From contig CAYRYU010000004.1 in NCBI GenBank assembly GCA_964428355.1, positions 131,261 through 174,441 on the forward strand: a DNA stretch of 43,181 nt, in the 5' to 3' direction. Positions within the stretch are counted from its first letter, which is position 1. Each line of letters starts with the position of its first letter. The notes beneath the pieces were generated by a model. The model was not told the origin of the DNA. It made no database searches and was given only the letters and a program-made list of their open reading frames with translations. The translations under genes and the position numbers were made by a program. This stretch comes from an uncultured bacterium (GTDB taxonomy: Bacteria; Muiribacteriota; Ozemobacteria; Ozemobacterales; Ozemobacteraceae). Positions 1-30,552 of the stretch are shown one piece after another.

Positions 1-3000
1 GTTCGGGACGCTGAGTACCAGCTTGGTTCCGGCCCCTGTCGCCCCGCCCGTTAGTGCGAGGGCCTGCTTCCCGCTTCCCGGGAAGAGCCGGAAGAAACCG
101 TCTGAGGTGAGTTCAAGCTTCCAGGGGGTTCCCTTTGCATCCTTGCCGGATGAGAGCATTGCCTTCGTTCCGGCCGTGGTCTTTCCACCTTCCCCTGTCA
201 GGAAAAGCCGGGAATAGGAGTTGACCAGGAAGAACGTTTTCTTCGCGAACGGTCGTGCCCGCATCGTGGCCTGGAACTCCGGAGCCAGCTTCTCCTTGAT
301 GTCGGCGAAGTTTGCCTGGCAGGCATCCAGTTGGGACATCTGTTTCGAAAGGAGCTTGGACTTCTTGCCCACCTTTGTGGCAAGGAGGTTCCTGAGCTGC
401 TCAGACTTGTTCTTGAAAAGCGCTTTGATCGAGTTGACCATGTCCGACCACGAGAAGTCGCCCTCCCATTCGAACGGTTCGCCCATGATCCGGACCTTGA
501 CGTAGATGTGGATAGGCCTTTTCCCGATAAGGGATTTGAAGGACCCCGACAGTTCGCTGTCCTCGATCGCGAAGACATCCAATCCCGCGATTCCGTTGGC
601 CATCTTTTCCGCGATTGCCTTGATGCCGTCGGTGACCTCCTGGCCGGCTTCGACGATCTCCTCGGCGGCATGCAGCCCGGCGAGGGCAGTCTTGTAGGCC
701 GTGATCACGCCCCAGACCCTGGGATCGGCATCGACGGGAATCGAGTCGACGCATTCCTCAACCGCCTTGGCGTAGAGTTCGGCGCATTCCTTCGCGATAT
801 ACAAACCCGCGATCTCCAAGGCATACTTCGCCCGTTTGAAGATTCGCCACTTGGGGGTGTCCTTGAGCTTCTTCTTCTTCTCCTCGATCTTCTTTTCGAT
901 CTCTTCGACCTTTTCCCGGGCTTTCTCGGCGGACTGGAGAACCTTCTCCCGGTCGCGGAGGACGATCAGTCGCTGTTTGTCAATCTCCTTTTTGAGGTTC
1001 TCGACTTCCTTTTTCGCGTCTTCCAGCTCCTTGAGGGCATCGAGGAATTCCTGGTCGGGTTCCCAGTTCTTGATCCGGTTCGCGATCTCCTTGGTGAACC
1101 ATTTCTGGAAATCACCCTTGAGTTTCGCCGTGATCTGGAAATCCTTGGGGTTCAGGAGGTCGGCTTCTTTGGTTTTTCCTACGAAATCCGCTTGGAACAA
1201 ATCTCCAGCCTTCAGGCCGAACTCGATCTGGACCCCGTCGATGCTGATGGTGATCTTGATGGTGGGTTTCAACCCGAGGATGCTCGCCTTGAAACAGATG
1301 TAGAAATGCGGCATTTCCGAGAAGTTCGCGGCGATGTCGATCTTCGCCTCCTCGATCTTGAGGAGCGGTCCGAAGTCCTTCAGAAGGAATTCCCCGTAGA
1401 TTTTCAAACCCGACATATCCAGGAAGGAGTCGACCTTGGCGATCTCCTTCTTCAGGAGGATGAGGGTTCCCTTCAATCCCGCGCCGGGGCCCTGGACCTT
1501 CAGGTCGGGGTCGGTGGCCCCGGGAGTGACCAGCTTCACATGGAAATCCTTCAGCTGGAAAATCGGAAGCTTGTCCAGGTGCAGGAGTTTGAAGATGCTG
1601 TTTTCGGGGGAAGCCAGTTTCTCGAGAACCTCCTGGGCTTTCTTCCGCTTGTTCGCATCCTTTATCGTGTTGAGGAAAGACTGTTTGTCGGCCGCCTTCT
1701 GGGCGATCGCCCTGAATACGATCTCGGCGATTTCGATGGTGTTGAGGAGCGGGATCGTCGACATCTGGCTCGCGGTGAAATCCAGCAGGACTTCCTTGGG
1801 GAATCCCAGCGCGGCCGGTTCAAGTTTGGTTCCGAAAGCGAGTCCGTAGTCCTTCGAGCCGAACTTGGCCGAACCGGCGGCCTTCACGCCCACCGCCCCT
1901 TCGGCGTCGAGACTGAAGCCGAAGACGAGGTCCCGGACGGTGATTCCGGGAAGTCCGAAAATGTCCTTCCATTCACCCTCTAGCTTTCCGGTGACCCCGA
2001 GGCCCACTCCCGTCGCGGAGACGTCCGCAGAAAACTGGCCCACGAGAGTCAGATCGTTTCCACTCACGCTGAACAGGAAGCGGATCGCCATTCCGAGCGA
2101 GAGATCCAGGGAAGAGGTCATTTTCAGGAAGAACTCGGTTCCGATGCCCTGAGGCCGGATTGCCCCATGGAAAGGAAGTTTGGCCGGGAAGTTGAAGTTC
2201 GGGAGCTTCGCGGCAAGAGCGAAGGCCGGAGTCCCGCCCCCGAAGATCCCTTCGATGCTTCCGGCAATGATCATGGGGTCGGTGATTCCGGCTTTCTCCA
2301 TTGCCGTCTTCACGCTGCCGGATGTGTCTCCCGGGTTGAAGACCGCGATCAGGTTGATCCCCTTGAGGATGTGGATCTGGAAGGTCGGGGTAGTGGAGAT
2401 GTCAGCCAGGAACTCCTGGAGGTTAACCGGGAGGTCGCTCAGCTTCGAATCGAACCCGCCCTTGGCAAGGACGAGGTAGGCCTGCGGAAACACGAGCGGG
2501 AGCGCGAGCCTGGGGATGAGCTTTTTCAAATCCAGCTGCGGGAACTTCAGCAGGAAAGCGATGTCGCCCGTTTTTCCCCTGGGGATGTACATCATGAAGG
2601 ATGTTTCGAGGTTCTTTTTTGTCCAGACGAGGGTACCCCCGAAGCCGTTCATCGAGGCCCAGACATCCTTCACGCCAAGTTCGCTGATCCCGGGAATCTC
2701 CTTGACTCCGGGAATGTCGGAGAACTTCAGGGTCGATGGCATGCGGAGAGTGAAATCGTCGATGGCGCCCTTGTACATCGTGAATTCACCCGCCACCTCG
2801 AAAGTGGGTCCGCCCTTGATCGTGGCTTTTGTCCTCAAACCCATGAGAAGCAGGGTGGAGGAGGAAACCTTCGATGTTTCACCGTAGAAGGAGATTTCCT
2901 TCAAATCGATGAAATCGAGACCTCCTGCGTTTTTCCAGGAGTTCTCCTTGACCATGGTGGAAGCGAAGCTCTTCTTCCAGGAGTTTCCTGTCTCTTTCGT

Positions 3001-3834
3001 GAAGGAGAGGCAGCTTTCGAAGTTGAAGGTCTTGTTCCGGATCGTCAGCTGGTTGCTGCTGTTGAGGGAAATGGTGATGGTTTTGTTCGTGCCTTCCTTG
3101 ACGGCCTTGAAATCGAGGGAGCTTCCGGTGAACCGGATCGCCGACGGGATGCAGGGAGGGGCAAGCGCGGGGAATTTGACCGAAAGATCGAATTCCGTCG
3201 TGTCGCCGCTTCCGTCCTCGGATTCACCGTTGGCAAACTTGGCGAGGAAACTTGCGCCCACCCTTCCGAGGATGGTCACCGCTCCGCCCGTTACCCCGAG
3301 CTCCTTCTTGAATTCACCCCAAGCTCCGGAGTCGGTGGTCTTCACCTGGCCGAAGAAGTTGACCCCGGACTTCCATTCGATCTTTTCCTCGGCTCCGAAA
3401 ACCTGACCGAGGCTTGCTTTGATGTTCGCGTTGGGGACCGCGCCGGCCTTGAAAGAGGTGTCGGAAAGGGTGACGACCAGGCCGACGTTCTCGAAAGCCA
3501 TGTCCCCAAGGGGAGTGTTGGCAAGACTGCTGGAGAATTTTGCGAAACTGACATTCGGCGCAAGAAGGGCGATGTTCCATTTATTGTCGACCTTGAAAAT
3601 GGAAACCTGGATGTTGCTTCGACCCAGGGTGCCTGAAAAGCCGTTTCCCTCCGCCGCGCCCACCCTCAAGTTCAGGCCCGCGAGGGCGGAGTTTTTTCCC
3701 AGTTCCTCGGCGACCTTGCCCGGGTCATCTGCAGAAAAAGCCTTCCCGTAAAACGCCCAAAAGGCAGAAAAGACCAGCACTAGGGCCAGGGTCCTCAACC
3801 GAACCCCTCCGAACCTGTTGCCCCAAATTGACAT
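1..3834 (-). CDS. very large secreted protein (>=1278 aa, C-terminus beyond window edge); N-terminal signal peptide, beta-rich G/K/F-repeat regions, central charged coiled coil; family not assignable by eye (AsmA/TamB-like, adhesin- or toxin-like are possibilities)
   Basis: RC of 3832-3834 is ATG with GGGGAGG 6 nt upstream; my hand translation stays open through to position 1 (no stop met); N-term MSIWGNRFGGVRLRTLALVLVFSAFWAFYGKAFSADD is signal-peptide-like; EELEDAKKEVENLKKEIDKQRLIVLRDREKVLQSAEKAREKVEEIEKKIEEKKKKLK coiled coil mid-protein. The provided ORF track shows only antisense ORFs here because the true ORF has no in-window stop. Confidence 0.7.
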   Translation of the reverse strand, partial: MSIWGNRFGGVRLRTLALVLVFSAFWAFYGKAFSADDPGKVAEELGKNSALAGLNLRVGAAEGNGFSGTLGRSNIQVSIFKVDNKWNIALLAPNVSFAKFSSSLANTPLGDMAFENVGLVVTLSDTSFKAGAVPNANIKASLGQVFGAEEKIEWKSGVNFFGQVKTTDSGAWGEFKKELGVTGGAVTILGRVGASFLAKFANGESEDGSGDTTEFDLSVKFPALAPPCIPSAIRFTGSSLDFKAVKEGTNKTITISLNSSNQLTIRNKTFNFESCLSFTKETGNSWKKSFASTMVKENSWKNAGGLDFIDLKEISFYGETSKVSSSTLLLMGLRTKATIKGGPTFEVAGEFTMYKGAIDDFTLRMPSTLKFSDIPGVKEIPGISELGVKDVWASMNGFGGTLVWTKKNLETSFMMYIPRGKTGDIAFLLKFPQLDLKKLIPRLALPLVFPQAYLVLAKGGFDSKLSDLPVNLQEFLADISTTPTFQIHILKGINLIAVFNPGDTSGSVKTAMEKAGITDPMIIAGSIEGIFGGGTPAFALAAKLPNFNFPAKLPFHGAIRPQGIGTEFFLKMTSSLDLSLGMAIRFLFSVSGNDLTLVGQFSADVSATGVGLGVTGKLEGEWKDIFGLPGITVRDLVFGFSLDAEGAVGVKAAGSAKFGSKDYGLAFGTKLEPAALGFPKEVLLDFTASQMSTIPLLNTIEIAEIVFRAIAQKAADKQSFLNTIKDANKRKKAQEVLEKLASPENSIFKLLHLDKLPIFQLKDFHVKLVTPGATDPDLKVQGPGAGLKGTLILLKKEIAKVDSFLDMSGLKIYGEFLLKDFGPLLKIEEAKIDIAANFSEMPHFYICFKASILGLKPTIKITISIDGVQIEFGLKAGDLFQADFVGKTKEADLLNPKDFQITAKLKGDFQKWFTKEIANRIKNWEPDQEFLDALKELEDAKKEVENLKKEIDKQRLIVLRDREKVLQSAEKAREKVEEIEKKIEEKKKKLKDTPKWRIFKRAKYALEIAGLYIAKECAELYAKAVEECVDSIPVDADPRVWGVITAYKTALAGLHAAEEIVEAGQEVTDGIKAIAEKMANGIAGLDVFAIEDSELSGSFKSLIGKRPIHIYVKVRIMGEPFEWEGDFSWSDMVNSIKALFKNKSEQLRNLLATKVGKKSKLLSKQMSQLDACQANFADIKEKLAPEFQATMRARPFAKKTFFLVNSYSRLFLTGEGGKTTAGTKAMLSSGKDAKGTPWKLELTSDGFFRLFPGSGKQALALTGGATGAGTKLVLSVPN

Positions 3835-6645: not shown

Positions 6646-9600
6646 TCAATCCCGAAATCGTTCGAGAATGACGAAAGCGGGGACGCGGATCTTTCCTCCG
6701 ACAAGGGGTTTCCGCTTCCATCGGGGGGAAAGAGATTTTTCCGTGAGTGGGCAGACCACAATTCCGGGCCCAGGGGCGGATTTCGTCGCCTTTTCCATCT
6801 CCGCCGAAAGGTTAACCGTTGGACCGGTGACCGTGAAGTCCTGGCGTTGACTCCCTCCTCCAAGGACTCCAAGGATGGTTCGGCCCGATCCGATTCCAAC
6901 ACCTATCCTTATCGGGAACTCACCTCTTCCCTCACGTTCCTCGTTGAACTTTGCGACTTCGGAGAGCATATTCCAGCCTGCCTGGGCGGCTCTCTCGGGT
7001 GCGGGGGGCCGCCCGTGAACAGGGAGGAAAACAGCCAGGATCGCGTCCCCGATGAACTTGTCGATGGTTCCGCCCTCACCTTCGATAACCGGTTCCATTC
7101 GAGTCAGGTACGCGTTGAGCATTCCCACGATCTCTTCGGGGGCTTTTTCCTCGGACATGGACGTGAAACCTCTGATGTCCGCCGTCAGGATCGTCGCATC
7201 GACCTTGGTCGCTTTCGGCTCCCCCCCCCTCGCGATCGCATCCATGGTCAGATCAGACAGGAAGCGGGACAAAAACTCCTTCTCGCGAAGCCCGTCGGCC
7301 ATCGAGTTGAAGGAGTTGCACAGATCTCCGATCTCATCTTCGGTCAAGGCGGGAAGCCGGGTGGTCTCCCCGCCTTCCAGGAGGTTGCCTACCCCTTCCT
7401 GAAGGGAACGGACCGGTCGGAGGAAAAAACGGGAGAAGATGAAAGCCATCAGGACAATTATTCCGACGGGATACAGAACGACTGCGTTCGAAAGTAAGGC
7501 CCCCCATGGTTTTCGGGTCCCCCGAGGATCGGGTCTTACCGAGAATGCGACGAACCCCCAATCTTTCAAGGCCCTGCCGAGAAAAATGTGGGGTCTTCCC
7601 CCGACGGTCAGTTTTCCCCGGATCTTCCCCCCTTTCATCGTAAGCCTTTTAAGAAGGCTCCGTATGCCGGGATGCGATTCAGCCCAGATCGGGAAGACGT
7701 TCGGGTTGTTGGTGAAGTAGGAGTTCATGAAGACGAGGGAAGGCTGCCCGTTTGCCAGAAAAGGTGATTCCAGGAGGGCCTTCCGCATTTCTGAAAACTC
7801 CGCCTGCCTTCTCGCGAAATTGGCCATAACGGCAAGAGGGATCTGGAAATCCTTGGAAAAAAACGTATGGAAGAAGGTCCATGTGTTTTCATGGAGGATC
7901 TGCCAGGAGTTGATCCGATCTTGGGAAAGCCATGTCTTGAGCAGTTGCATCGGATCGAACGATTGTTCGATGGTCTCGAAAACGAGGTCATCGGTAGCTT
8001 CCTCGCCGTGACCTGATTTCACTGGCCGGTCGGAATCTTTTCGGAACCTCAGACTTCGTCCAAGTTTTGCAAGGAACCGGGAAAAGAACCGGTCGGTTTT
8101 TTCAACCTGCTTTTCGTTTTCCTTCGTGGTGATGACCCTGATCGGAACCACGGGCTGGGAGGGAGGGATCAGGAAAAGCCTGTTGACATCGCCTGATGCC
8201 AGCTCGGGGATGATCTTATCCGTGAAACTTGCTGGTGGAAGCCCTTTCACCCAAACCGGATCGGATAAAACCTGCTTCAGAAGCGATACCCGGTCACTGA
8301 GACTTTTTTCCCTCACGTTCTCGAGGTTCTGGAGATCCGCCTCGAGAGAACGGAACTCCTCCATTACCGAAACATCCGAATCCCAGAGCATGCCGGAAAC
8401 CGATGTCCAGCCAAGGCCAAGGGTGGGTGCAATGCAGGTCAGGAGGCTTAGAAGAAGGAACTTGACCCCAATGGAGCTTTTTGGAGCCGGAAGCATTTCG
8501 ATCGGCTTCCCTTCACCGGGAGAATCTCCGGGAGGGATCCTCCCCGGTGGCGCAACCCCGGGGGATACGAATCCGGGGGCGGGGGAAACGGGCAGTGAGC
8601 CGGATGAAGCGGCCTCTTCAGGGGGACCCGCCTTGACACTTGGTGCTCCCTTGGTACGGCCTTCAGGAGGTTCGGGGCAACTGGTAGGGGGTGAAAGCAG
8701 TTTCAGGATACCGGAAACCGAAAGGAAGAGAGATAGGAATCCGATCGCGACAGCCATGGGGGAGCGTGCGAGGCGGAAAATGGGCGGGGAAGGATCCCAG
8801 AGTGAGATGACTCTGTCCGGGTCTCCGGGCAGACCGCTGAACGCGGCCCCACCTTCCTCCGTGAAGATCTCCCCACTGGTTTCCTGGTCCAACGCCCGTT
8901 TAAAGGCTTCCCCCAAGGACCCTGGAAATCCGGGCGGAAGAGCCGGCTTTTTCCGGGTTCCCACCCAGGAATTGAACGAAAGCTGGGTCTTGTTCTTCGA
9001 AAGCGACTCCATGAACCAGTCGCCTCTTTGAAAGAAAGCCAGGGGAACCAGGATGGCGAAGGCACCACCCCTGACAAGGGGGATCTTTTGGACAGGGAAG
9101 CTCTTGTCCCGGGTCAAGTATGAAACCGGGGCGCTGACGGGGGAGCCAGGGAAAAGGGTGCCTATCAACACCATGTAATGAGTCTTTCGGAATTGGGCTT
9201 GGACGATGGAGATCGTCGATACCCCGAAGGCGAAGGGGAACGATTTGCCGAAGAGGCTTTCCAAAGCCACCGAAAAGCGGTCCCAATTCAAGTCTGACCG
9301 GGGAATCAGGAAGGAAGACCAATCCAGGATGAGGCTCAAGCATCGGGTTTCCGTCGCGTCGAGCCCCTCCTTGTCGAGGCATCCTCCTTCCCTATCCTTC
9401 AGCATGAATTGGACGTCGCTTCCAAAGGTTTCGAGAGCCCGCTTTCGGATCGTCCCCGCGGTTTCGGGGAGCAGTTCAGCGATGTCCCTGACGGTGTCGA
9501 GAAGCGTCTCGTGGGCCAGAGATTCGGGGCTCATGCGTGCTTGGAGAAGAGGAAGCAGATACTCCCGCTCCTGGGCGACGTTGGTCACTGCCACCTGCGA

Positions 9601-9705
9601 CAAGTCAGCTTCCATGGAATCCAAAAGGGACCACTCGAGCAAAAAGACGGTGATCAGAAAAACGGGAATGGCGACTTTCAGAGTCCTTTCAGTTGCCCGT
9701 GCCAT
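6646..9705 (-). CDS. membrane-bound class III adenylate/guanylate cyclase with large extracytoplasmic sensor region, Pro-rich linker, HAMP domain and C-terminal cyclase homology domain
   Basis: CHD motifs ATILTADIRGFT, KFIGDAILAVF, RIGVGIGSGRTILGVLGGG...FTVTGPTVNLSAEME; HAMP-like LTEDEIGDLCNSFNSMADGLRE; multiple TM helices; start at ATG 9705 (MARATERTLKV, GAGG 5 nt upstream), 17-nt overlap with upstream cyclase. Confidence 0.85.
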   Translation of the reverse strand: MARATERTLKVAIPVFLITVFLLEWSLLDSMEADLSQVAVTNVAQEREYLLPLLQARMSPESLAHETLLDTVRDIAELLPETAGTIRKRALETFGSDVQFMLKDREGGCLDKEGLDATETRCLSLILDWSSFLIPRSDLNWDRFSVALESLFGKSFPFAFGVSTISIVQAQFRKTHYMVLIGTLFPGSPVSAPVSYLTRDKSFPVQKIPLVRGGAFAILVPLAFFQRGDWFMESLSKNKTQLSFNSWVGTRKKPALPPGFPGSLGEAFKRALDQETSGEIFTEEGGAAFSGLPGDPDRVISLWDPSPPIFRLARSPMAVAIGFLSLFLSVSGILKLLSPPTSCPEPPEGRTKGAPSVKAGPPEEAASSGSLPVSPAPGFVSPGVAPPGRIPPGDSPGEGKPIEMLPAPKSSIGVKFLLLSLLTCIAPTLGLGWTSVSGMLWDSDVSVMEEFRSLEADLQNLENVREKSLSDRVSLLKQVLSDPVWVKGLPPASFTDKIIPELASGDVNRLFLIPPSQPVVPIRVITTKENEKQVEKTDRFFSRFLAKLGRSLRFRKDSDRPVKSGHGEEATDDLVFETIEQSFDPMQLLKTWLSQDRINSWQILHENTWTFFHTFFSKDFQIPLAVMANFARRQAEFSEMRKALLESPFLANGQPSLVFMNSYFTNNPNVFPIWAESHPGIRSLLKRLTMKGGKIRGKLTVGGRPHIFLGRALKDWGFVAFSVRPDPRGTRKPWGALLSNAVVLYPVGIIVLMAFIFSRFFLRPVRSLQEGVGNLLEGGETTRLPALTEDEIGDLCNSFNSMADGLREKEFLSRFLSDLTMDAIARGGEPKATKVDATILTADIRGFTSMSEEKAPEEIVGMLNAYLTRMEPVIEGEGGTIDKFIGDAILAVFLPVHGRPPAPERAAQAGWNMLSEVAKFNEEREGRGEFPIRIGVGIGSGRTILGVLGGGSQRQDFTVTGPTVNLSAEMEKATKSAPGPGIVVCPLTEKSLSPRWKRKPLVGGKIRVPAFVILERFRD

Positions 9706-12508
9706 TTTCCTCTTCCAATGTGAAGATCCTGACCGGTCCGGTTCGGCCTCTGATAGCCCTGAGCGGGAGATCCCGTACGATGATCCCCGGGAACTTGGGC
9801 TCGGGAACATCGATCGTTCCGAGGACCGAGGGAAGGTCGACCGTGCCCGCGAGCTTTTCGAGGCGGGCGGCCAGGTTCACGATATCGCCGATCACGGTGA
9901 AATCCATGCGCTTCTTTTCCGACCCGATATGACCTGCCACCACTGGCCCGATTCCGAACCCGATTCCATAAGCTGGAGCAGGCAAACCCAATTGGATTCT
10001 GTTTTCTCTCCACATCCTGAGGGATTCCCTCAATTCCAACGCCGCCCTTGATATCCCGGCCTCCAGGGCCGTGCTCCCCTCTCCCTGGAAAACCGCCATC
10101 ACTGCGTCTCCCAGCATCTTGTCGATCTCCCCGCCACAACGCCCGATGGCTTCCTGGCAGCGGAGGTGGAAATCGTTCATCAGCGAAACCGCCAACTCCG
10201 GTGACAACCCCTGTTCCACGTTCCGAAAATCCCTGAGGCCCGCGAAAAGGATCCCCAGTCTTTCCCGGGAGACGCTTGCCAACGGCCTCGATGAAGCCTG
10301 CCTTATGAGCTCGGGGCGGAGGAAGGATGCCATCCGCGCTTTTTGCCGAAGGCCAACGAGCATCCAGTTGAAACTGGCCCCCAGAATTCCCAGTTCGTCC
10401 TGGCTCCTGACCGGAACTCCCGCTTCATAGTCGCCTGCGTGGACCTTGCCGATTCCGCATGTCAACTCGAGCAATGGGGTCAGGAGGAACTTCCGGAGCA
10501 ACTTTCCTGCACCAATTGCCAACGAAAGCGAGGAGAAAAAGAGAATCCCGAGGAATGGAATCGCATGCTGGGAGAAGCCCTGGACCCTTCCGGCCGGCAT
10601 GACGGCGGCAGCGACCGCGTCCATTCCACCAAGGGGCCTGCAAAGGACCAGGTATTTTTCGCCCTTGTGATCGAACTGCACGCACAGAGGTTGGCGCGTG
10701 GCTTCGGTAACATCGAGGATTCCCCGGACGAAGGGATGACGGGGCATTGCCTTGGTCCCACCCTGGAACATGGCCCGGATGAACAAGCCGTTCCTTGGGG
10801 GAAGTGACCCGAGCTTCCGTTTTATCGATTCCGCGGCGAGGGTTTCGAAGGAGAATACGAGGCAGGCTAGCGACTTGACCGAACCCTGACTGTCCCGAAC
10901 CAGGCCCGGGAAAACGACCCGTTTCTGGAACCCGGTTTCCAATCTGTGGAGTCGGTTGAGGAAAGAGTCCGCCCACCCCGCGAAACTCATCAACCCCGAT
11001 TGATGGAACTGGATTGGGGTTTCCAGAGCTTTTTCCGCCGCACCGACATCGAAGGTGAGGCTCGCGAGGGTTTGGCGAAGGACGGAGAAAGCGATGGAAA
11101 TGGTGGCCGAAAACTGTTTTCGTGGAAGGGTCGTGTCCAGGATGAATTTCCCGTCCCGGAAAATCAGCGATTGTCCGATCAGGCCGATCGGTTTGAAATG
11201 GCCCAGAACCCTGTCCATATCGCTGGGAGTCCGGACGTGGGCGAGGGAAAATGAGCCAAGGATCTTCGCCAGTTCGACCTCGACTTCTGCGAAGATGTCT
11301 GAAAGCGACTTTTCGATGCTTCCGATTTCCCGTTCGAGCCGGTTTTCCACTTCCTGACGGAGCGAAAGGTGGAGCTTGAGGGACTGCCGAAGGGTGCTGG
11401 TGGACATTGCTATCAGGGGAAACCCCGCGAGCAGTACCGTTCCGAGACTGAATTTCCCAACGAGGGAAAGCTTGGAAAAAAAACCTACCCCACCAGGGGC
11501 AGCCAGGAGCAACCCTACAGCCAGGACGAACAACCAAAGGGACCCTTGCAGACCCGTCAGCAGGGCTGGAGGGTCGAGAAATCCCCGGCCGGTGCGCTTG
11601 ATTCCGACGGTGAGGACGAGGTCCGGGTCGGTCTGCCAGAATCGCGAAAGGAAAACCGAGTCGGTGGTTTCGTATACGGGACGGCCCTTGCCTAGGTTCT
11701 CCAGAAGTCCGTGCTGGAGTCCGGGGGATATCTCGCCACCTTTGACTCCTTCTCCGGTCGACTGCCAGAACGCACCCAGGGAAACCCCCGAACCCTTACC
11801 GGCCCGGAGGAAACGTTCAACTTCCCACCCTTTTCTGGCGCGAAAAAGGGGTACCAGCGAAACCAGGGAGCCGACCGGGGGAGCTTTCCCAAAACGGAAA
11901 AGGGTCAGCGAGAGGAGATAGAGCCTGCCATCGAACAGGACTTCCATCGGACCCCGCCGGCAACCTAGCAGCCATTTCGGGTCAACCAGGTCCCCCATCC
12001 GGGTTCGGATAAGTGCCTGGGCTGCATAGCGTTCGCCTGGAGAGGGTTTTCGGGAACCGGAAAGGAAAGCCTGAAACCCCTTCCAGGCCCGAATTCCCTC
12101 CTGGGGAGGTGATTCACCTCGGGGGAACACCAGATTTCCCGCGCTGTCGAACCAGAAAAACCTGGAAGTCCGGGGGAAACGCTGCATCAACGATTTCTGG
12201 AGCTGTCCTGCGGAACCCGGGTCTAGTCTTCTTCTTCTTAGGAAATTTCTCGCGGAATCTTCCCATTTCCGGAAGGAGGTCCGTATGATCTCGACCCGGT
12301 CGGACCCGCGGATCGTTTCAGTCATGAAATACTTCGCGTTGTCGATGTCTTCGGCAGCGCATTTCCCCTCGAAAACCCGCACGATGTCCACGAGAAGCCC
12401 GTTCAGAAGCCAGGCGGGGACGACAACTCCCAGAGCGAAAAACAGAAACCCCAGGAGGCGGGAAAAGGAGGCCGGGGCGGTAGAGACCTTTTCAGTCTCC
12501 CCGGACAT
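9689..12508 (-). CDS. membrane-bound class III adenylate/guanylate cyclase with periplasmic sensor, HAMP domain and cyclase homology domain (paralog of downstream cyclase)
   Basis: CHD motifs ILFAGLRDFRNVE, KMLGDAVMAVF, GIGFGIGPVVAGHIGSEKKRMDFTVIGDIVNLAARLE; HAMP LGILGASFNWMLVGLRQK; TM helices; 17-nt overlap with upstream TPR gene. Confidence 0.85.
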   Translation of the reverse strand: MSGETEKVSTAPASFSRLLGFLFFALGVVVPAWLLNGLLVDIVRVFEGKCAAEDIDNAKYFMTETIRGSDRVEIIRTSFRKWEDSARNFLRRRRLDPGSAGQLQKSLMQRFPRTSRFFWFDSAGNLVFPRGESPPQEGIRAWKGFQAFLSGSRKPSPGERYAAQALIRTRMGDLVDPKWLLGCRRGPMEVLFDGRLYLLSLTLFRFGKAPPVGSLVSLVPLFRARKGWEVERFLRAGKGSGVSLGAFWQSTGEGVKGGEISPGLQHGLLENLGKGRPVYETTDSVFLSRFWQTDPDLVLTVGIKRTGRGFLDPPALLTGLQGSLWLFVLAVGLLLAAPGGVGFFSKLSLVGKFSLGTVLLAGFPLIAMSTSTLRQSLKLHLSLRQEVENRLEREIGSIEKSLSDIFAEVEVELAKILGSFSLAHVRTPSDMDRVLGHFKPIGLIGQSLIFRDGKFILDTTLPRKQFSATISIAFSVLRQTLASLTFDVGAAEKALETPIQFHQSGLMSFAGWADSFLNRLHRLETGFQKRVVFPGLVRDSQGSVKSLACLVFSFETLAAESIKRKLGSLPPRNGLFIRAMFQGGTKAMPRHPFVRGILDVTEATRQPLCVQFDHKGEKYLVLCRPLGGMDAVAAAVMPAGRVQGFSQHAIPFLGILFFSSLSLAIGAGKLLRKFLLTPLLELTCGIGKVHAGDYEAGVPVRSQDELGILGASFNWMLVGLRQKARMASFLRPELIRQASSRPLASVSRERLGILFAGLRDFRNVEQGLSPELAVSLMNDFHLRCQEAIGRCGGEIDKMLGDAVMAVFQGEGSTALEAGISRAALELRESLRMWRENRIQLGLPAPAYGIGFGIGPVVAGHIGSEKKRMDFTVIGDIVNLAARLEKLAGTVDLPSVLGTIDVPEPKFPGIIVRDLPLRAIRGRTGPVRIFTLEEENGTGN

Positions 12509-15866: not shown

Positions 15867-17411
15867 ATGTTTTCGCTTGTCAAGAGTGGCGCAATTTCGG
15901 GGTTTGAACCGTTCATTGTCGAGGTTGAGGTCGATGTGGCGGGCGGGCTTCCGAATTTCGTCCTAGTGGGGCTTCCCGACGCTGCCGTATCCGAATCCCG
16001 GGAGAGGATCAAGGCCGCCCTGAAGAACAGCGACATTTCCCTCCCGAGCCGGAAGATCACCGTAAACCTCGCTCCCGCTGATGTCCGAAAGGAAGGAGCC
16101 GGTCTGGACGTCCCTATCGCGGTGGGGCTTCTCGTTGGATCGGGGCTGGTTCCGGCGGCAAGGGCAAAAGACTACCTTTTCGTCGGGGAGATGTCTCTCG
16201 ACGGAAGGCTCAGACACACCCGGGGAATTCTTCCTCTCGCCCTGATGGCGCGCGAGAAAGGGTTGAAGGGGCTGGTCGTTCCCTCGTCGAACGTTTGCGA
16301 AGCTGGAGTCGTCCCGGGAATCTGCGTCCACGGTTTCCGGACATTTGGGGAGCTCGTGGCAGCTCTTCAGATGGATGGACCGATGCCTTGTGATCCGGGG
16401 GAACGGCCTGTTTCGACATCCAGCATCCCATCGTTCAACCATGTCGATCTTGCAGAAATCAAAGGTCAGGCTTTCGCAAAAAGAGCCCTGGAAATTGCGG
16501 CCGCGGGGGGACACAACCTCCTGATGGTGGGCCCACCAGGTGCCGGGAAGACCCTTCTTGCGCGGGCGATTCCTACCATCCTTCCGGAACTCGAGTTCGA
16601 GGAAGCCGTTCAGGTGACAAAAATCTATTCGATAAAGGGGTTGCTTCCCCCGGGAAGCGGGCTGGTCGAGAAGCGCCCCTTCCGGGATCCACATCACACC
16701 GTCTCGGACGTCGCGCTCATCGGGGGTGGACGGGTTCCAGCTCCGGGAGAGGTTTCCCTTTCCCATAACGGGGTGCTCTTCCTTGACGAGATAACGGAGT
16801 TCAGAAAGTCGGTCCTGGAAGTCTTGCGGGAACCGCTTGCCGAGGGAAAGGTTTCGCTCGCACGGGCGGCCCAGACGAACGTTTTTCCCGCCCGTTTCCT
16901 CCTGGTTGCTGCAATGAATCCTTGCCCATGCGGTTTTGCCACGGACCCTGTCAAGGGTTGCGGATGCTCGTTGAGGCAGATTCGGGCGTACCAGCAGCGG
17001 CTGTCAGGACCTCTTCTCGACCGGATCGACCTCCAGATTTCCGTTCCCCGCCTGAAACCCGAGGAGCTCGCCCAGACCGGCCTGGGAGAAGCCTCGGTCA
17101 TTGTCCACGGGAGGGTGGCGGGGGCGAGGCAACGTCAACTCAAGCGTGGTTCCCGTGGCGAGGCCGGCCTGAATGCGCATCTTTCGGCCAGGATGATGAA
17201 GAAATTCTGCGTTCTGGACCAGGCATCGACGCATCTCCTCCTCGAAGCGGTGAGGAAGTTCGGCTTGTCCGCACGTGCCTACGACAAGATTCAGAGGGTA
17301 GCAAGGACCATAGCCGATCTTGAAGGAACCTGTGAAATCCGTATCTCACATGTTGCAGAAGCCATCCAATACCGGACCGCAGACCCCTTCCAGTCATCCG
17401 CCCAGGCTTGA
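15867..17411 (+). CDS. comM: Mg-chelatase-like AAA+ ATPase ComM/YifB family
   Basis: N-terminal Lon-protease-like domain, Walker A GPPGAGKT, C-terminal Mg-chelatase ChlI-like region; 514 aa. Confidence 0.9.
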   Translation: MFSLVKSGAISGFEPFIVEVEVDVAGGLPNFVLVGLPDAAVSESRERIKAALKNSDISLPSRKITVNLAPADVRKEGAGLDVPIAVGLLVGSGLVPAARAKDYLFVGEMSLDGRLRHTRGILPLALMAREKGLKGLVVPSSNVCEAGVVPGICVHGFRTFGELVAALQMDGPMPCDPGERPVSTSSIPSFNHVDLAEIKGQAFAKRALEIAAAGGHNLLMVGPPGAGKTLLARAIPTILPELEFEEAVQVTKIYSIKGLLPPGSGLVEKRPFRDPHHTVSDVALIGGGRVPAPGEVSLSHNGVLFLDEITEFRKSVLEVLREPLAEGKVSLARAAQTNVFPARFLLVAAMNPCPCGFATDPVKGCGCSLRQIRAYQQRLSGPLLDRIDLQISVPRLKPEELAQTGLGEASVIVHGRVAGARQRQLKRGSRGEAGLNAHLSARMMKKFCVLDQASTHLLLEAVRKFGLSARAYDKIQRVARTIADLEGTCEIRISHVAEAIQYRTADPFQSSAQA

Positions 17412-17431
17412 CCCGAAAATGGATCAACCCC

Positions 17432-17526
17432 AAAATCGGGGACATTAATTCGGGGACATGAGAATCTTTTTCCAAAAGATTCTCATGTCCCCGATTAAAT
17501 GTCCCCGATTCAACGCTCCGATTAAG
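17432..17526. promoter_or_regulatory. extended palindrome/repeat array: perfect 19-bp inverted repeat (GGGGACATGAGAATCTTTT / tcc / AAAAGATTCTCATGTCCCC) flanked by about 5 copies of AATCGGGGAC / GTCCCCGATT motif; candidate operator or structured element between comM and cNMP-binding gene
   Basis: read directly: 17452-17470 vs 17474-17492 perfect RC; outer arms 17432-17451 / 17493-17512 near-RC; additional copy CTCCGATTAAG 17516-17526; not followed by a T-run on either strand. Confidence 0.5.
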
Positions 17527-17542
17527 ATGGCCCTTTTGGGAA

Positions 17543-17571
17543 TTGACACAGGGGGACAGGATCGGTAGGAT
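17543..17571 (+). promoter_or_regulatory. sigma70-like promoter (-35 TTGACA, 17-nt spacer, -10 TAGGAT) for cNMP-binding/ATPase gene
   Basis: TTGACA 17543-17548, TAGGAT 17566-17571, AGGAGG RBS 17590-17595, ATG 17602. Confidence 0.4.
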
Positions 17572-17601
17572 GTGGAGTCAACTAGAACCAGGAGGGCATA
17601 G

Positions 17602-19047
17602 ATGAAACAATACGAATTCCTGAAAGGGGTATCCTTGTTTTCCGCCCTTTCCGACGACGAGCTGAAATCCTTTGCCGACAAGGCCGAAAACATCCAGTTC
17701 GTCCGTGATGCCATGATCTGCAAAGAGGGTCAGAAAGCTGATTCCATGTTCGTCATCAAATCCGGGATCGTCCAGATTTTTTGCGACGACGGAAAGGGAG
17801 GACGAAAGGTACTCACCCACCTGAAGCTTGGGGATTATTTCGGGGAAATGGCGCTCCTTACGGAAGAGCCCAGATCGGCCAGTGCTCTTGCCCTGGCCGA
17901 AACCGATGTGATCAAGATCAAGAAGGAGGACTTCCACAATGTCCTGAAAACCTCTCCGGAAGTCTCTCTCAGAATCATCCGGACCCTGTGCGACCGGTTG
18001 GCCAAGTCGAACATCGGCACACCGACCGAGAAGACCTACAACGTCTACGCGGTCATGGGTCCGGACACATCCTCGGGCAAGAGCATGTTCGCGCGCAACC
18101 TGGCCTTCGCGATGAGCAAGATCCTCGGAAAGGATGTCCTGGTCTACGATCCCAACCTGCGCGACGACAGGGTGGCCAAGTATCTTGGGGTCGAGCAGAG
18201 GTCCCGCATCATCGACGAGCTCGTCGACCGTGAGAAGATAACGGACATCAAGAAGTTCACGGTGAGGGCGCCATGCGGTCTCTTGACGATCGTCCCGCAG
18301 GAGAACGGTTTCACCGATCTCCGTCTGAAGGAGTTCCATACGTTTTCGATCATGAAGACGATCATGGACAGCTTCGAATACATCGTGGTCGACTCCAGCT
18401 CGATGTTCACCAAGGTCACGAAGGAGATCGTCCAGAGCGTTGACAAGATCCTCTACCTGATGTCGAGCAAGAATGTCTCCGTCGAGGGCCTCATCGACCA
18501 TTTCGAGGAGACCCGGCGTGGTTGGAAGGTCGATCCCAGCAAGGTTTTTTACGGAGTCAACCATATGACCGACGATCCCTCCCAGGAGGGAAAGATCACG
18601 GAAAAGGCCCGGTCCTTCATCAGGTTCGAGATGCCTTTCGAGAAGAAACTCCAGGGCCACCGGGACCCCGACACCAAGGTCCTGATCGAACGGGAACCAA
18701 ACAACCCCATCTCCGTCGTTGCCCGCGAACAGGCTGAAAAGGTTCTCTTCGACCAGGAGTTCGTGATCTTTCTCCCCACCTTCGCGGGAGATCCTTCCAA
18801 AGCCGACCATTCGAGACGGTGGGCGGACACCGGGGTCCAGGAGCTATCGGCGAAGCTTCGCAATGTCAGCCTGAAGGGGCCGGTAACCCACAACGGCGCT
18901 CCATGCCACCAGATATTCGGGAACGCCTCGAAGTGGTCCCTCAACCAGCAGGTCATCGCCGTTGTCGATTTCGCGAACAAGTTCAAGCAGGAGTTCCATC
19001 TCGAGAAGCTCACCTTCTCCCTCAATGGGCAGGAAAGCGTGGTCTGA
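17602..19047 (+). CDS. fusion protein: N-terminal cyclic-nucleotide-binding (CAP effector-type) domain + ParA/MinD/CpaE-like P-loop ATPase domain with deviant Walker A
   Basis: cNMP-binding signature LKLGDYFGEMALLTEEPRSASALA; downstream YAVMGPDTSSGKSMFARNLAFA (deviant Walker A of SIMIBI-class ATPases); strong RBS. Confidence 0.8.
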   Translation: MKQYEFLKGVSLFSALSDDELKSFADKAENIQFVRDAMICKEGQKADSMFVIKSGIVQIFCDDGKGGRKVLTHLKLGDYFGEMALLTEEPRSASALALAETDVIKIKKEDFHNVLKTSPEVSLRIIRTLCDRLAKSNIGTPTEKTYNVYAVMGPDTSSGKSMFARNLAFAMSKILGKDVLVYDPNLRDDRVAKYLGVEQRSRIIDELVDREKITDIKKFTVRAPCGLLTIVPQENGFTDLRLKEFHTFSIMKTIMDSFEYIVVDSSSMFTKVTKEIVQSVDKILYLMSSKNVSVEGLIDHFEETRRGWKVDPSKVFYGVNHMTDDPSQEGKITEKARSFIRFEMPFEKKLQGHRDPDTKVLIEREPNNPISVVAREQAEKVLFDQEFVIFLPTFAGDPSKADHSRRWADTGVQELSAKLRNVSLKGPVTHNGAPCHQIFGNASKWSLNQQVIAVVDFANKFKQEFHLEKLTFSLNGQESVV

Positions 19048-19071
19048 TCCGAACTTCGGAAAACCAATCGG

Positions 19072-19108
19072 GGCGCGGCATTTCGTTTGCCGCGCCTTTT
19101 TCCATTTT
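19072..19108 (+). terminator. rho-independent terminator (possibly bidirectional) between convergent cNMP-binding gene and M48 protease gene
   Basis: 9-bp stem GGCGCGGCA/TGCCGCGCC with 7-nt loop followed by TTTTTCCATTTT. Confidence 0.6.
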
Positions 19109-22498: not shown

Positions 22499-22511
22499 CA
22501 GGAGGGTCGTT

Positions 22512-22619
22512 GTGGTAACCGCTCCCCTTCTCATTCTTTTCGGCCTCATCCTTGGATTGAGTTGCGTCGATTTCGGGTTCTTCCTGCTCGACGAGGTGAA
22601 AAAGAAACTGGGGACCTGA
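22512..22619 (+). CDS. candidate 35-aa single-TM micropeptide translationally coupled to murC
   Basis: GTG start 6 nt after perfect GGAGGG located 3 nt after murC TGA; VVTAPLLILFGLILGLSCVDFGFFLLDEVKKKLGT (hydrophobic helix + KKK tail); stop overlaps a hairpin. Confidence 0.3.
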   Translation: MVTAPLLILFGLILGLSCVDFGFFLLDEVKKKLGT

Positions 22620-22932
22620 TCCTCCTTCGGGGGAGGTCCCGAAAACTCCGCCGGCTGAGGCGCCCCCATCCGGGCGGAAACGTGACACGTCGCCCTCCGT
22701 GGACTCAGGCGTCCCCGACACGTCGCGCTCCCTGGCGATACAGCCGACTTGCACATTGTACCGCGGAACCGTCAACCGGTTTCGCGGTTCTTTTTCCGGG
22801 CGAGGTCCGGAAGGGGTACGTAGCGAATTTTCTTGTCATGTCCTTGCCATTTTTCCCTGATGGTGGTAGGATGAAAAATCCTTCGGAGTCGGATGGAAAC
22901 GGCCGATCAGTTGATTGGAGTGTAAACCGACG

Positions 22933-23259
22933 ATGATCGAACCATCAAATTCCCCCGAGCGGGAAAACGAGGGCCAGGCATTGTTTCAGAAGGGATTATC
23001 CCTTGAAGCGGACGGGAAGACCGCAGAGGCGATCGATTTCTACCGCCGGGCGGTCGAAACCTGTCCGGATATTGCCCAGGCCCATTTCAACCTCGGGGTG
23101 AATCTCGCCATGCTCGGAAGAAACGAAGAGGCCATCCGGTCCTGGAAGAGGGCGGTTTGGCTGAAGCGCGACTTCATCAACGATCTGGTCACCGCCCTCG
23201 ACCTGGATCACGAGATGCGGGAGATGGAGATCTTTCCCGAGGGAACGCTGCTTTCGTAG
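22933..23259 (+). CDS. small TPR-repeat protein
   Basis: TPR consensus-like AEAIDFYRRAVETCPDIAQAHFNLGVNLAMLGRNEEAIRSWKRAV; weak RBS, start uncertain. Confidence 0.5.
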   Translation: MIEPSNSPERENEGQALFQKGLSLEADGKTAEAIDFYRRAVETCPDIAQAHFNLGVNLAMLGRNEEAIRSWKRAVWLKRDFINDLVTALDLDHEMREMEIFPEGTLLS

Positions 23260-23286
23260 ATCGGTGGAGATTCAGGAGCTGAAGAA

Positions 23287-23448
23287 ATGAACTACTGTTG
23301 GGAAGTCTACAAGAAGTCCGAATGCGAGACCTGCCGGTTCTTTTCCGCCTTCCAGGCCGGGACGCTCGACGTCGAGAAGATGAAGGGGATCATCATGGTC
23401 GATGAGGAAGTCGCAGGCACCAAGATCCCCGCGGAAACCCAAAACTGA
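23287..23448 (+). CDS. small Cys-containing hypothetical protein (53 aa; C-x8-C-x2-C)
   Basis: ATG 23287 with AGGAG 8 nt upstream, 28 nt after preceding stop; MNYCWEVYKKSECETCRFF... Confidence 0.35.
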   Translation: MNYCWEVYKKSECETCRFFSAFQAGTLDVEKMKGIIMVDEEVAGTKIPAETQN

Positions 23449-23544
23449 CGAGATTCGCCGGGGAAGCGCCCCTGAGAGGCTCTCCCCGGCAATCTGGTTC
23501 CCGATTCCCTTTTCCCGACCCGGATCCAATCCGGGGCCCGAGAA

Positions 23545-23925
23545 TCAATCGGTGTTTTTCCTGCGCATTCGCTCTGGATGGAACAGGCGGTCGATGAAGG
23601 AGAACCCCGCAAAGTAGTCTTCATCGAGAGCCGGAAGGTCGGGCATCCAAGGCTTTACTTCCCTGGGGGGGGCCATCAGCATCAAACGTTGCGGGAAACT
23701 CATCTCCAAGGCTTTTTGCTGGCGTTCGCAAGCGCATTCCAGCGAATGGAGCTTGTTTTCCAGGGTTTCCATCTTCCTTGCGATGTTCTTCAGCAGCGCT
23801 TGGTTGGCGGCAAGGACCTGGGCGATGTCAATGGCGGCTTCCTGAACGAAAGGTTGAAGCCCCCGCTCCTCGTTTTCCTCTGAGGGCGGATCCGCCCGGT
23901 CCTTTAGTTTCATCTCTACTTTCAT
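23545..23925 (-). CDS. hypothetical coiled-coil protein (126 aa)
   Basis: AAAGGAG 7 nt upstream of ATG; heptad-like helical sequence, CACERQ pair of Cys. Confidence 0.5.
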   Translation of the reverse strand: MKVEMKLKDRADPPSEENEERGLQPFVQEAAIDIAQVLAANQALLKNIARKMETLENKLHSLECACERQQKALEMSFPQRLMLMAPPREVKPWMPDLPALDEDYFAGFSFIDRLFHPERMRRKNTD

Positions 23926-24087
23926 CCGTTTGCTCCTTTGGAGGGCTTATGAGATCCTATCGGCCTTTCCGGGCCAAACCATTACCCCGAATTGTTCCCG
24001 GAAGAGTCTCGGGCGGTTCCATCTTGGGGCATGGAATTCCAGCATCCAACTTGCCCAAAGGTCCCCCCTGTGGTAGCCTTTGCAGGT

Positions 24088-29491: not shown

Positions 29492-30178
29492 TCAGCGCCG
29501 CAGGTAGGCCATCGGGTTCAGGACGGTGTTCCCGCGCCTGATTTCAAAGTGCAGATGACTTCCCGTGGTTACTCCGGTGCTGCCAACGTTCCCGATGACC
29601 TGGCCGGTGACCGTGTCACCAACCCGGACATTGAGTTTCGAGCAGTGGGCATAAACCGTCGAATAACCGGAGCCATGGGCAATCTGGACCATCAGTCCAT
29701 AACCTCGCCTCCACCCGGCGTATACAACCCTTCCACCCATTGCGGGGCGGATGGCAGTTCCAGTTTTCGCCCGGATGTCGATTCCAGTATGGAAATGGAC
29801 GCCGCGCCTGCGGAAGGGGTGGACCCTTCGTCCGAACAGGGAACTGATCTCCCCGTTTACGGGAACCAGAAAGCCACGACTGGTTCTGTTCATGACAACC
29901 TCAACCTGGGGAAGGTTGATTTCCCTTCCGGGAATCACCTTTTTCCTGGGTTGGGCCGGCCGAACACGAACCTGGTAGGTCTTCACATTGCCCCTCGAGG
30001 ACGAACGGGGATCCAGGGCGTTGAAAAATGGATTGGCCTCAACTGGGACTTTCGCCCTTGGTTCCACTTTGGAATCTTTTTCGAGATCCCTGGGGTTGAA
30101 ACCCGCGTTTGCGGATCCGGGGGGGAGCAGAGAAAGGGTCAGGACACCAACGATCAGAAGAAACGATCTGAACCGCAT
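29492..30178 (-). CDS. secreted M23-family (LytM-like) metallopeptidase
   Basis: HTGIDI and HLHFE zinc-ligand motifs, signal peptide MRFRSFLLIVGVLTLSLLPPGSANA. Confidence 0.85.
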   Translation of the reverse strand: MRFRSFLLIVGVLTLSLLPPGSANAGFNPRDLEKDSKVEPRAKVPVEANPFFNALDPRSSSRGNVKTYQVRVRPAQPRKKVIPGREINLPQVEVVMNRTSRGFLVPVNGEISSLFGRRVHPFRRRGVHFHTGIDIRAKTGTAIRPAMGGRVVYAGWRRGYGLMVQIAHGSGYSTVYAHCSKLNVRVGDTVTGQVIGNVGSTGVTTGSHLHFEIRRGNTVLNPMAYLRR

Positions 30179-30552
30179 TACCTTTCCGCCGATTTGCCCG
30201 ATGGCAAGTGCCAGATCGGCGTTCCTCCTTCCTGTTGCCTACGAGGTTAGCTGACGGGTTCGGAGTTTGGAAGGCCCCCTACCCTGGAGATCCAGGGATT
30301 CACCCCAAGGACTTGGGTCCCCCGCTCTTGGTGGGCAACCAAGACTCGGCAAAAAATTTGGACAGCCATTTATAACCGAAGGATTTTCATTTGTCAACAC
30401 CTTGTTTGAGATAATACGAAAACAGACGATATTCGAAGATTTGCATCAAGAAAGAAGCGGAATTTCGCCCGAGGTACGGGCAAAATCGAATCCCCTTGGG
30501 CAAATTGCTTCGAGTTTACACGTTTCTCCAAAAGAAGTGTAAAATTGGGCCT

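Follow-up and report, generated by a model that had tools for sequence, protein, structure and literature searches.

A fold-back palindrome between comM and a cNMP-binding ATPase gene in an uncultured member of the Ozemobacteraceae: a candidate orphan REPIN/MITE-like insertion

Introduction

Fold-back repeats in the intergenic DNA of bacteria are already well known as a general class. The classes of REP sequence carry a conserved GTAG-type head beside a palindrome, and RAYT is a single-copy gene that would usually be found outside any given stretch of the genome such as the one analysed here. REPINs themselves consist of an inverted REP doublet with a hairpin-forming spacer; they are 71–110 bp in size and occur in tens to hundreds of copies per genome, together with a RAYT transposase (Bertels & Rainey 2011, PMC3116915). 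MITEs are small (~50–500 bp) and noncoding and end in inverted repeats. Their copy number goes down to one in some genomes (PMC10969869); cleavage of MITE inverted repeats by RNase III is known to alter transcripts (PMC10969869, PMC2649163). The Correia elements (CREE) of Neisseria and the ERIC sequences of enterobacteria are imperfect palindromes of ~100–150 bp which are intergenic, transcribed and near promoters (PMC10969869, PMC2649163).

Here we analyse a stretch of 43,181 nt (the window) from an uncultured bacterium of the Ozemobacteraceae, in which a striking palindrome lies between comM and a gene for a cNMP-binding ATPase. To our knowledge, fold-back repeats of this kind are undescribed in the candidate phylum Riflebacteria. 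Two readings of the palindrome were offered in the original prediction, made from the DNA letters alone: an operator with several sites for a dimeric regulator, or a structured RNA or REP-like element; its position was judged suitable for control of the cNMP-binding ATPase gene. The analyses presented below favour, on balance, an orphan REPIN/MITE-like, non-autonomous fold-back insertion of ~130 bp with a core of 77 bp, and indicate that this element probably does not serve the cNMP gene as an operator recognized by its sequence.

Results and Discussion

Genomic setting

The genes and signals that flank the palindrome are as follows.

15867–17411, + strand: comM/YifB-type Mg-chelatase-like AAA+ gene (Pfam ChlI, Mg_chelatase and Mg_chelatase_C)
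17543–17571, + strand: sigma-70-type promoter of the cNMP-ATPase gene (TTGACA at 17543–17548, 17-nt spacer, TAGGAT at 17566–17571)
17602–19047, + strand: gene for a ParA/MinD-like ATPase with a fused cNMP-binding domain (Pfam cNMP_binding, AAA_31 and CbiA)
19070–19098, + strand: canonical intrinsic terminator with a T-run, 3' of the cNMP gene (terminator scan)

The comM gene, which is 61 % identical to the comM of a related lineage (L034) and has the same C-terminus (...DPFQS...), ends with its stop codon at 17409–17411, and 22 nt separate this stop from the first repeat unit. On the other side, the -35 TTGACA begins 16 nt past position 17526, the right end of the array as originally delimited, so that the distances originally estimated (about 20 and about 17 nt) are borne out; the whole interval from the comM stop to the -35 is 131 nt. 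The promoter is near consensus (10/12 positions match), and an RBS (AGGAGG) lies at 17590–17595, before the start of the cNMP-ATPase gene. Homologues of this latter gene are annotated as Candidatus Riflebacteria/Ozemobacteraceae, the closest being 72 % identical.

When 25 ORFs of the window were scanned against Pfam, all proved to be ordinary chromosomal genes, and no transposase, recombinase, RAYT or HTH/DNA-binding regulator was found among them. Two large, adjacent genes with HAMP and adenylate/guanylate cyclase domains (6646–9810 and 9689–12508, both on the - strand) lie 5–10 kb from the cNMP-ATPase gene and may, together with it, constitute a local module for cNMP signalling. Elsewhere in the window, a full-length c-di-AMP (ydaO/yuaA) riboswitch at 30220–30361 (- strand; bit score 103, gathering threshold 38) lies directly upstream of an M23 peptidase gene (ORF 29492–30178, - strand), and ~1.5 kb at 22499–23991 is devoid of ORFs of at least 150 aa; this latter region has a canonical terminator at 22760–22788 and a promoter-like site at 22844–22872.

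Architecture of the palindrome

A repeat search of the window delimited positions 17434–17510 as a 77-nt near-perfect palindrome; no other long inverted repeat of high identity occurs in the 43 kb. The palindrome and the weaker sequences around it comprise the following features.

17412–17542, no strand: fold-back insert, an imperfect palindrome (delimited by the stop-to--35 distance in comparison with orthologous loci, and by GC content)
17434–17470, + strand: left arm of the core, with two 14-nt units in tandem and then GAGAATCTTTT (repeat search, folds)
17471–17473, no strand: loop/centre, TCC (repeat search, folds)
17474–17510, + strand: right arm of the core, consisting of AAAAGATTCTC and then two tandem copies of ATGTCCCCGATT (repeat and motif searches)
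17434–17445, + strand: unit L1, AATCGGGGACAT (motif search)
17448–17459, + strand: unit L2, ATTCGGGGACAT, one mismatch (motif search)
17485–17496, - strand: unit R2, AATCGGGGACAT (motif search)
17499–17510, - strand: unit R1, AATCGGGGACAT (motif search)
17514–17525, - strand: degenerate fifth unit, ACGCTCCGATTA (CTCCGATTAA at 17516–17525), present on the right side only (sequence, repeat search)
17412–17425, + strand: weak outer arm, CCCGAAAATGGATC (sequence, outer helix of the RNA fold)
17527–17540, + strand: weak outer arm, GATGGCCCTTTTGGG (sequence, RNA fold)

The two arms (17434–17470 and 17474–17510) are 37 nt each, are complementary at 35 of 37 positions (95 %) and meet at a centre of only 3 nt, TCC. 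The inner stem is perfect over 21 bp (17450–17470 with 17474–17494) and contains the 19-mer GGGGACATGAGAATCTTTT, which confirms the perfect 19-bp inverted repeat with a 3-nt loop reported in the original prediction and extends it by two base pairs. In shuffled sequences, the number of such 19-mer inverted pairs expected by chance was 0.00. Each arm carries two 14-nt tandem units built on the core A(A/T)TCGGGGACAT, which read AATCGGGGACAT-TA and then ATTCGGGGACAT-GA in the left arm, and ATGTCCCCGATT-AA and ATGTCCCCGATT-CA in the right arm; the sole two mismatches between the arms fall in the 4-nt inter-unit spacers (TAAT versus TTAA). Perfect palindromy also extends through the 25-bp spacer that separates the inner half-sites. 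Five copies of the motif, in both orientations, had originally been counted in the array: four are clear, whereas the fifth is weak and degenerate and can be recognized on the basis of a direct repeat, CCGATTAA, at 17491 and 17518. Together with the weak outer arms, this fifth unit widens the fold-back to ~17412–17540. This architecture, with short conserved units inverted around a palindromic spacer and tandemly duplicated in each arm, is of the REPIN/MITE type.

The insert differs from its surroundings in composition, its GC content being 45 % (41.6 % in the core) as against 50–61 % in ten other intergenic regions, and with stop codons in five of its six frames it is without coding capacity. 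Since an identical element is present in two near-identical sister Logan assemblies, an assembly artefact is excluded.

Predicted folding and its possible consequences

Folded as RNA, the palindrome reaches -66.3 kcal/mol (z = -9.5) and, folded as DNA, -38.1 kcal/mol (z = -12.6), and none of 200 shuffled sequences folds as stably; the folding that had been proposed as a check on the hairpin thus bears it out. In the RNA fold, the first 7 nt of the left outer arm, CCCGAAA (17412–17418), pair with 17534–17540. The element is therefore predicted to form an exceptionally stable hairpin, either as RNA or as single-stranded DNA. Since the palindromy is perfect even where a protein would need none, we suggest that it reflects a constraint acting on a hairpin or on a copying mechanism, rather than binding to double-stranded DNA.

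If comM were transcribed beyond its stop codon, the read-through transcript would carry, or end in, a hairpin whose 37-nt stem contains the perfect 21-bp duplex. REP and Correia elements (PMC2649163, PMC10969869) suggest by analogy that such a hairpin may block 3'–5' exonucleases and may separate comM from the transcript further downstream, for which a promoter of its own exists; a stem of this length would, again by analogy, be a plausible substrate for RNase III.

A stable stem-loop directly 3' of a stop codon also resembles an intrinsic terminator. The stem of the element, though, is 3–4 times the usual terminator length and is not followed by a U-tract; the terminator scan did not call it, and neither strand has a T-run, in agreement with the original view that this is not a classical intrinsic terminator. 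It is formally conceivable that the hairpin alone terminates comM transcription and has been selected for this role, given that a very stable hairpin lies only 22 nt past the comM stop and that the related lineages have no room for a terminator between comM and the next promoter. We consider this extremely unlikely: the T-run terminator at 19070–19098 indicates that the organism does use classical terminators, a 37-nt stem far exceeds what termination needs, and the relatives do without any such structure.

Comparison with orthologous loci

The evidence that weighs most heavily on the function of the palindrome comes from the orthologous cNMP-ATPase loci of six other Riflebacteria lineages (L006, L008, L010, L032, L034 and L036). 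A promoter of the form TTGACA-N17-TA[GA][GC]AT, ~30–35 nt before the start codon, is kept in all six, and at none of these loci is the palindrome, or even one TCGGGGACAT, present. The retention of the promoter in relatives that lack the palindrome implies that the palindrome is not a conserved operator. The order comM then cNMP-ATPase gene is common to three lineages (L032/L033, L034/L035 and L036), in which the comM stop lies 5–12 nt from the -35, as compared with 131 nt in the window, and the whole intergenic region is 63–67 nt. This difference amounts to ~120–125 nt of extra DNA in the lineage of the window, and it coincides with the fold-back at 17412–17542. The fold-back is thus lineage-specific extra DNA that lies upstream of a pre-existing, older promoter. 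An empty site is thus seen in L032/L033, L034/L035 and L036, where protein identity to the window lineage is only ~61–67 % and exact boundaries of the insert cannot be set. The pentamer TTGAC occurs at both borders of the insert (17408–17412 and 17543–17547), and was considered as a target-site duplication; it was rejected as evidence of one, because TTGA is ancestral both at the comM stop and at the -35 in the relatives.

These findings bear directly on the proposal that the four or five AATCGGGGACAT sites form an operator array, newly acquired in this lineage, which binds a dimeric or tetrameric regulator of the cNMP-ATPase promoter or of comM read-through. In favour of such a role, the 12-mers are four in number, nearly identical and arranged as two inverted pairs, 32 nt before the -35; a related sequence, GGGGACAGGA, lies within the promoter spacer (17552–17561); and the two HAMP cyclase genes 5–10 kb away point to cNMP signalling in the region. 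The promoter spacer is G-rich in two relatives too, however, and GGGGACAGGA may be there by chance. Moreover, all six orthologous promoters lack the array; the promoter is near consensus, which is atypical of dependence on an activator; and in three relatives it abuts the comM coding sequence, which implies that it works without any upstream site. The geometry is equally unfavourable, since tandem units 14 bp (1.33 turns) apart, and an inner inverted pair whose members are 37 bp (3.5 turns) apart, would place neighbouring sites on different faces of the helix, a poor arrangement for cooperative binding, and the spacer is palindromic throughout. Finally, no regulator gene lies in the window, and ~47 kb contain no further occurrence of the motif. 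We therefore regard an operator array as distinctly unlikely, and neither the multi-site operator nor the control of the cNMP-ATPase gene that had been envisaged is upheld. The locus also offers a caution of more general use: a striking palindrome beside a good promoter need not be an operator, and here it was the comparison with orthologous loci that decided the matter.

What lies between comM and the cNMP-ATPase gene differs from one Riflebacteria lineage to another. In the Ozemobacter-type pair L010/L011 this slot holds a ~9-kb block, and the same ~9-kb block lies upstream of the cNMP gene in L008/L009, where comM falls outside the fetched stretch. The block contains a cold-shock gene (in L010/L011), a Mrp/Hyf-like membrane complex and a divergent HTH_17-PTS_EIIA regulator. 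In L006 an ABC transporter is found upstream of the cNMP gene, and in L032–L036 there is nothing between comM and the cNMP gene.

Such variation in what the slot contains is in keeping with a rearrangement scar, in which case the palindrome would be left over from both ends of a larger element, or from a recombination event, formerly situated in this slot. The tandem sub-repeats inside the inverted ends agree with this, tandem sub-repeats in inverted ends being typical of multi-site transposase ends. Yet the element is unlike the sequences that border the ~9-kb block in L010, its repeats face each other only 3 nt apart with no evident TG/CA-type termini, and no recombinase is encoded nearby, and we hold a scar to be very unlikely. 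Tn7-like and Tn3-like ends were considered individually and set aside, given the misfit in unit size and orientation and the lack of TG/CA termini; nor does the element contain an attC consensus.

In a megahit contig from ENA that represents a slightly different strain (L038), position 1 corresponds to window position 17525 (AGATGGCCC...), at the exact right border of the array, so that the contig is uninformative as to the presence of the element. An assembly break at this point, due to the palindrome or to repeat or strain variation, could account for this single case.

Copy number

No second copy of the element was found in the 43-kb window or in the ~4–5 kb past its right end that could be followed in Logan contigs (~47 kb in total), nor was any copy found in ~120 kb of non-redundant DNA from Riflebacteria relatives (~200 kb if near-duplicate loci are included). 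Within the window, AATCGGGGACAT with up to two mismatches has 6 matches, against 5.6 expected, and all four good ones lie inside the element. The insert has no detectable similarity to its flanks or to the rest of the window.

Wider searches gave a similar outcome. The tandem-unit pattern TCGGGGACATNNANTCGGGGACAT returned no Riflebacteria locus from 185,579 species genomes or from the JGI metagenomes; a six-frame peptide query of the element met no ORF-called copy among 5.8 billion proteins; and blastn in distant mode found no match to the element in phage and plasmid collections. With Rfam, a search of the whole window returned nothing for the element at the gathering threshold, and an E-value search of 17300–17700 gave only generic matches to miRNA-precursor hairpins, of 14–25 bits against thresholds of 44–140. 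In the full text of the literature, the motif strings turned up in primers and guide RNAs only.

A single copy in ~47 kb makes a dense REP family unlikely, and is still compatible with ~1 copy per 50–100 kb. The suggestion of a REP-like or structured element therefore stands as regards structure, and explains the locus better than an operator does, while the repeated copies that a REP family would entail are missing from the ~47 kb. Should many copies be present genome-wide, the element would represent a new REPIN/MITE family with tandem sub-repeats.

Copy number also enters into the proposal that the palindrome arose in situ, through local slippage (yielding the 14-nt tandem duplications) combined with intrastrand template switching or quasipalindrome correction, and is a neutral, single-copy sequence that was never mobile. 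Template-switch correction produces near-identical arms, and the arms here are nearly identical, with the tandem duplication mirrored between them; every search gave a single copy; no transposase lies nearby and no clear target-site duplication is apparent; and the one-sided, degenerate fifth unit suggests local gain and decay of units. On the other hand, ~120 nt of new, AT-richer sequence needs a source, and nothing similar was found in the flanks or in the window; the composition of the insert is also unlike that of all other intergenic DNA checked. Taking these points together, we think an origin in situ unlikely, although it is the strongest competitor of the reading that we favour.

Likeness to known repeat families

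An orphan REPIN/MITE-like insertion, the reading that we favour, has points against it as regards mobility, namely the single copy in our searches, the lack of a nearby transposase and the lack of a convincing target-site duplication. Its likeness to described repeats is nevertheless considerable. As in REPINs, the element is an inverted doublet of a short conserved sequence with a hairpin-forming spacer; its 77-bp core falls within the REPIN size range, and it is extragenic, lying just past a stop codon. It departs from REPINs in being found once in ~47 kb, and its conserved block, a tandem pair of 14-nt units, is not a feature of REP sequences. No GTAG/CTAC head is present at the borders of the core or of the units.

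Likewise, the element is as small (~130 nt) and as noncoding as MITEs are, and has inverted-repeat ends; in MITEs, however, terminal repeats surround a core, whereas the arms of the element abut at a 3-nt centre, giving a fold-back. Correia elements and ERIC sequences are similar to it in size, in their imperfect palindromy and in their intergenic, promoter-near position, but the element has no sequence similarity to any described family, and no parent IS is known for it. A further likeness is to the DUS of Neisseria and the USS of Haemophilus, given a 10–12-nt motif arranged in inverted pairs in a hairpin after a gene which, in this case, is the competence-associated comM. Uptake sequences occur about once per kilobase genome-wide, and since the motif is found nowhere else in the 43 kb, a DUS or USS was ruled out.

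We infer that the REPIN/MITE-like element is selfish or neutral DNA, and that any effect it has on the neighbouring genes would be structural. What the locus contributes is one orphan palindromic insertion, added to the known intergenic fold-back repeats of bacteria.

Look-alike loci in other genomes and metagenomes

Scans with TCGGGGACATNNANTCGGGGACAT returned 4 loci from genomes and 11 from metagenomes, none of which is a copy of the element. They correspond to ~9 independent loci, in Planctomycetota, Fimbriimonadaceae, Gordonia and metagenome bins. In an uncultured MAG (L001), in a member of the Fimbriimonadaceae (L003) and in two metagenome contigs (L023/L028), as in the element of the window, 2–3 tandem 14-nt units of the form (A/T)(A/T)TCGGGGACATNN are directly followed by a hairpin, whose base is made up of the last unit and its inverted copy; the sequence of the inner stem differs among these hairpins, and complementarity is kept.

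It might be imagined that these modules and the element of the window belong to one cross-phylum, structure-specific family with a conserved recognizing protein, such as a transposase or recombinase, HUH-type or other, that binds hairpins; this protein would recognize the outer motif while the inner stem covaries. Were this true, the TCGGGGACAT-plus-hairpin module would make up one family, with a protein dedicated to it, and the element would matter more. To our minds the chance of this is slim. Homology across phyla is not established by the scans, given that the pattern itself forced 21 shared bases; if 14-nt tandem duplications are ~10-fold enriched over random, we estimate that ~2 matches per 600 Gb would be expected for any given 10-mer. 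Unforced identities in L001 amount to 5 of 7 positions, which is not significant once corrected for 15 loci. The flanks of the look-alikes hold unrelated housekeeping genes (pdxJ/M20 peptidase, pdxS/pdxT, MFS/esterase, purL and others), with no shared neighbour and no transposase.

Several of these loci have features of their own. The L001 module is flanked by pdxJ and by a gene for an M20 peptidase; after the latter, a second, unrelated perfect palindrome with 23-nt arms is found at 2968–3035. In L028 (3040–3110), two TCGGGGACAT units and a hairpin lie between pdxS and pdxT, and the module adjoins a classical-looking REP (GTGCGACTAAAGTCGCAC then CTAC). Low-GC metagenome contigs (L021, L022, L024, L026 at 3511 and 7983, L027 and L029) contain a ~120–160-nt repeat of ATTAAT-spaced units. 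The repeat has small flanking hairpins TTGCAGCTACGCTGC, occurs both in tandem (with a period of ~160 nt) and dispersed, including on both sides of purL, and has the exact 24-mer TCGGGGACATTAATTCGGGGACAT in common with the element of the window.

In viral sequences, the tandem-unit pattern gave no match, and the looser pattern GGGGACATGA-N(8–38)-TCATGTCCCC gave 9 contigs in unrelated contexts, among these a hairpin after a capsid gene and an iteron-like array. The latter, on contig L015 (9000–9180; also on L020), is a dense array of GGGGACATG in both orientations, which is intergenic, lies just 3' of a gene for a 675-aa Toprim + AAA_25 primase/helicase-like protein, and looks like a set of origin iterons.
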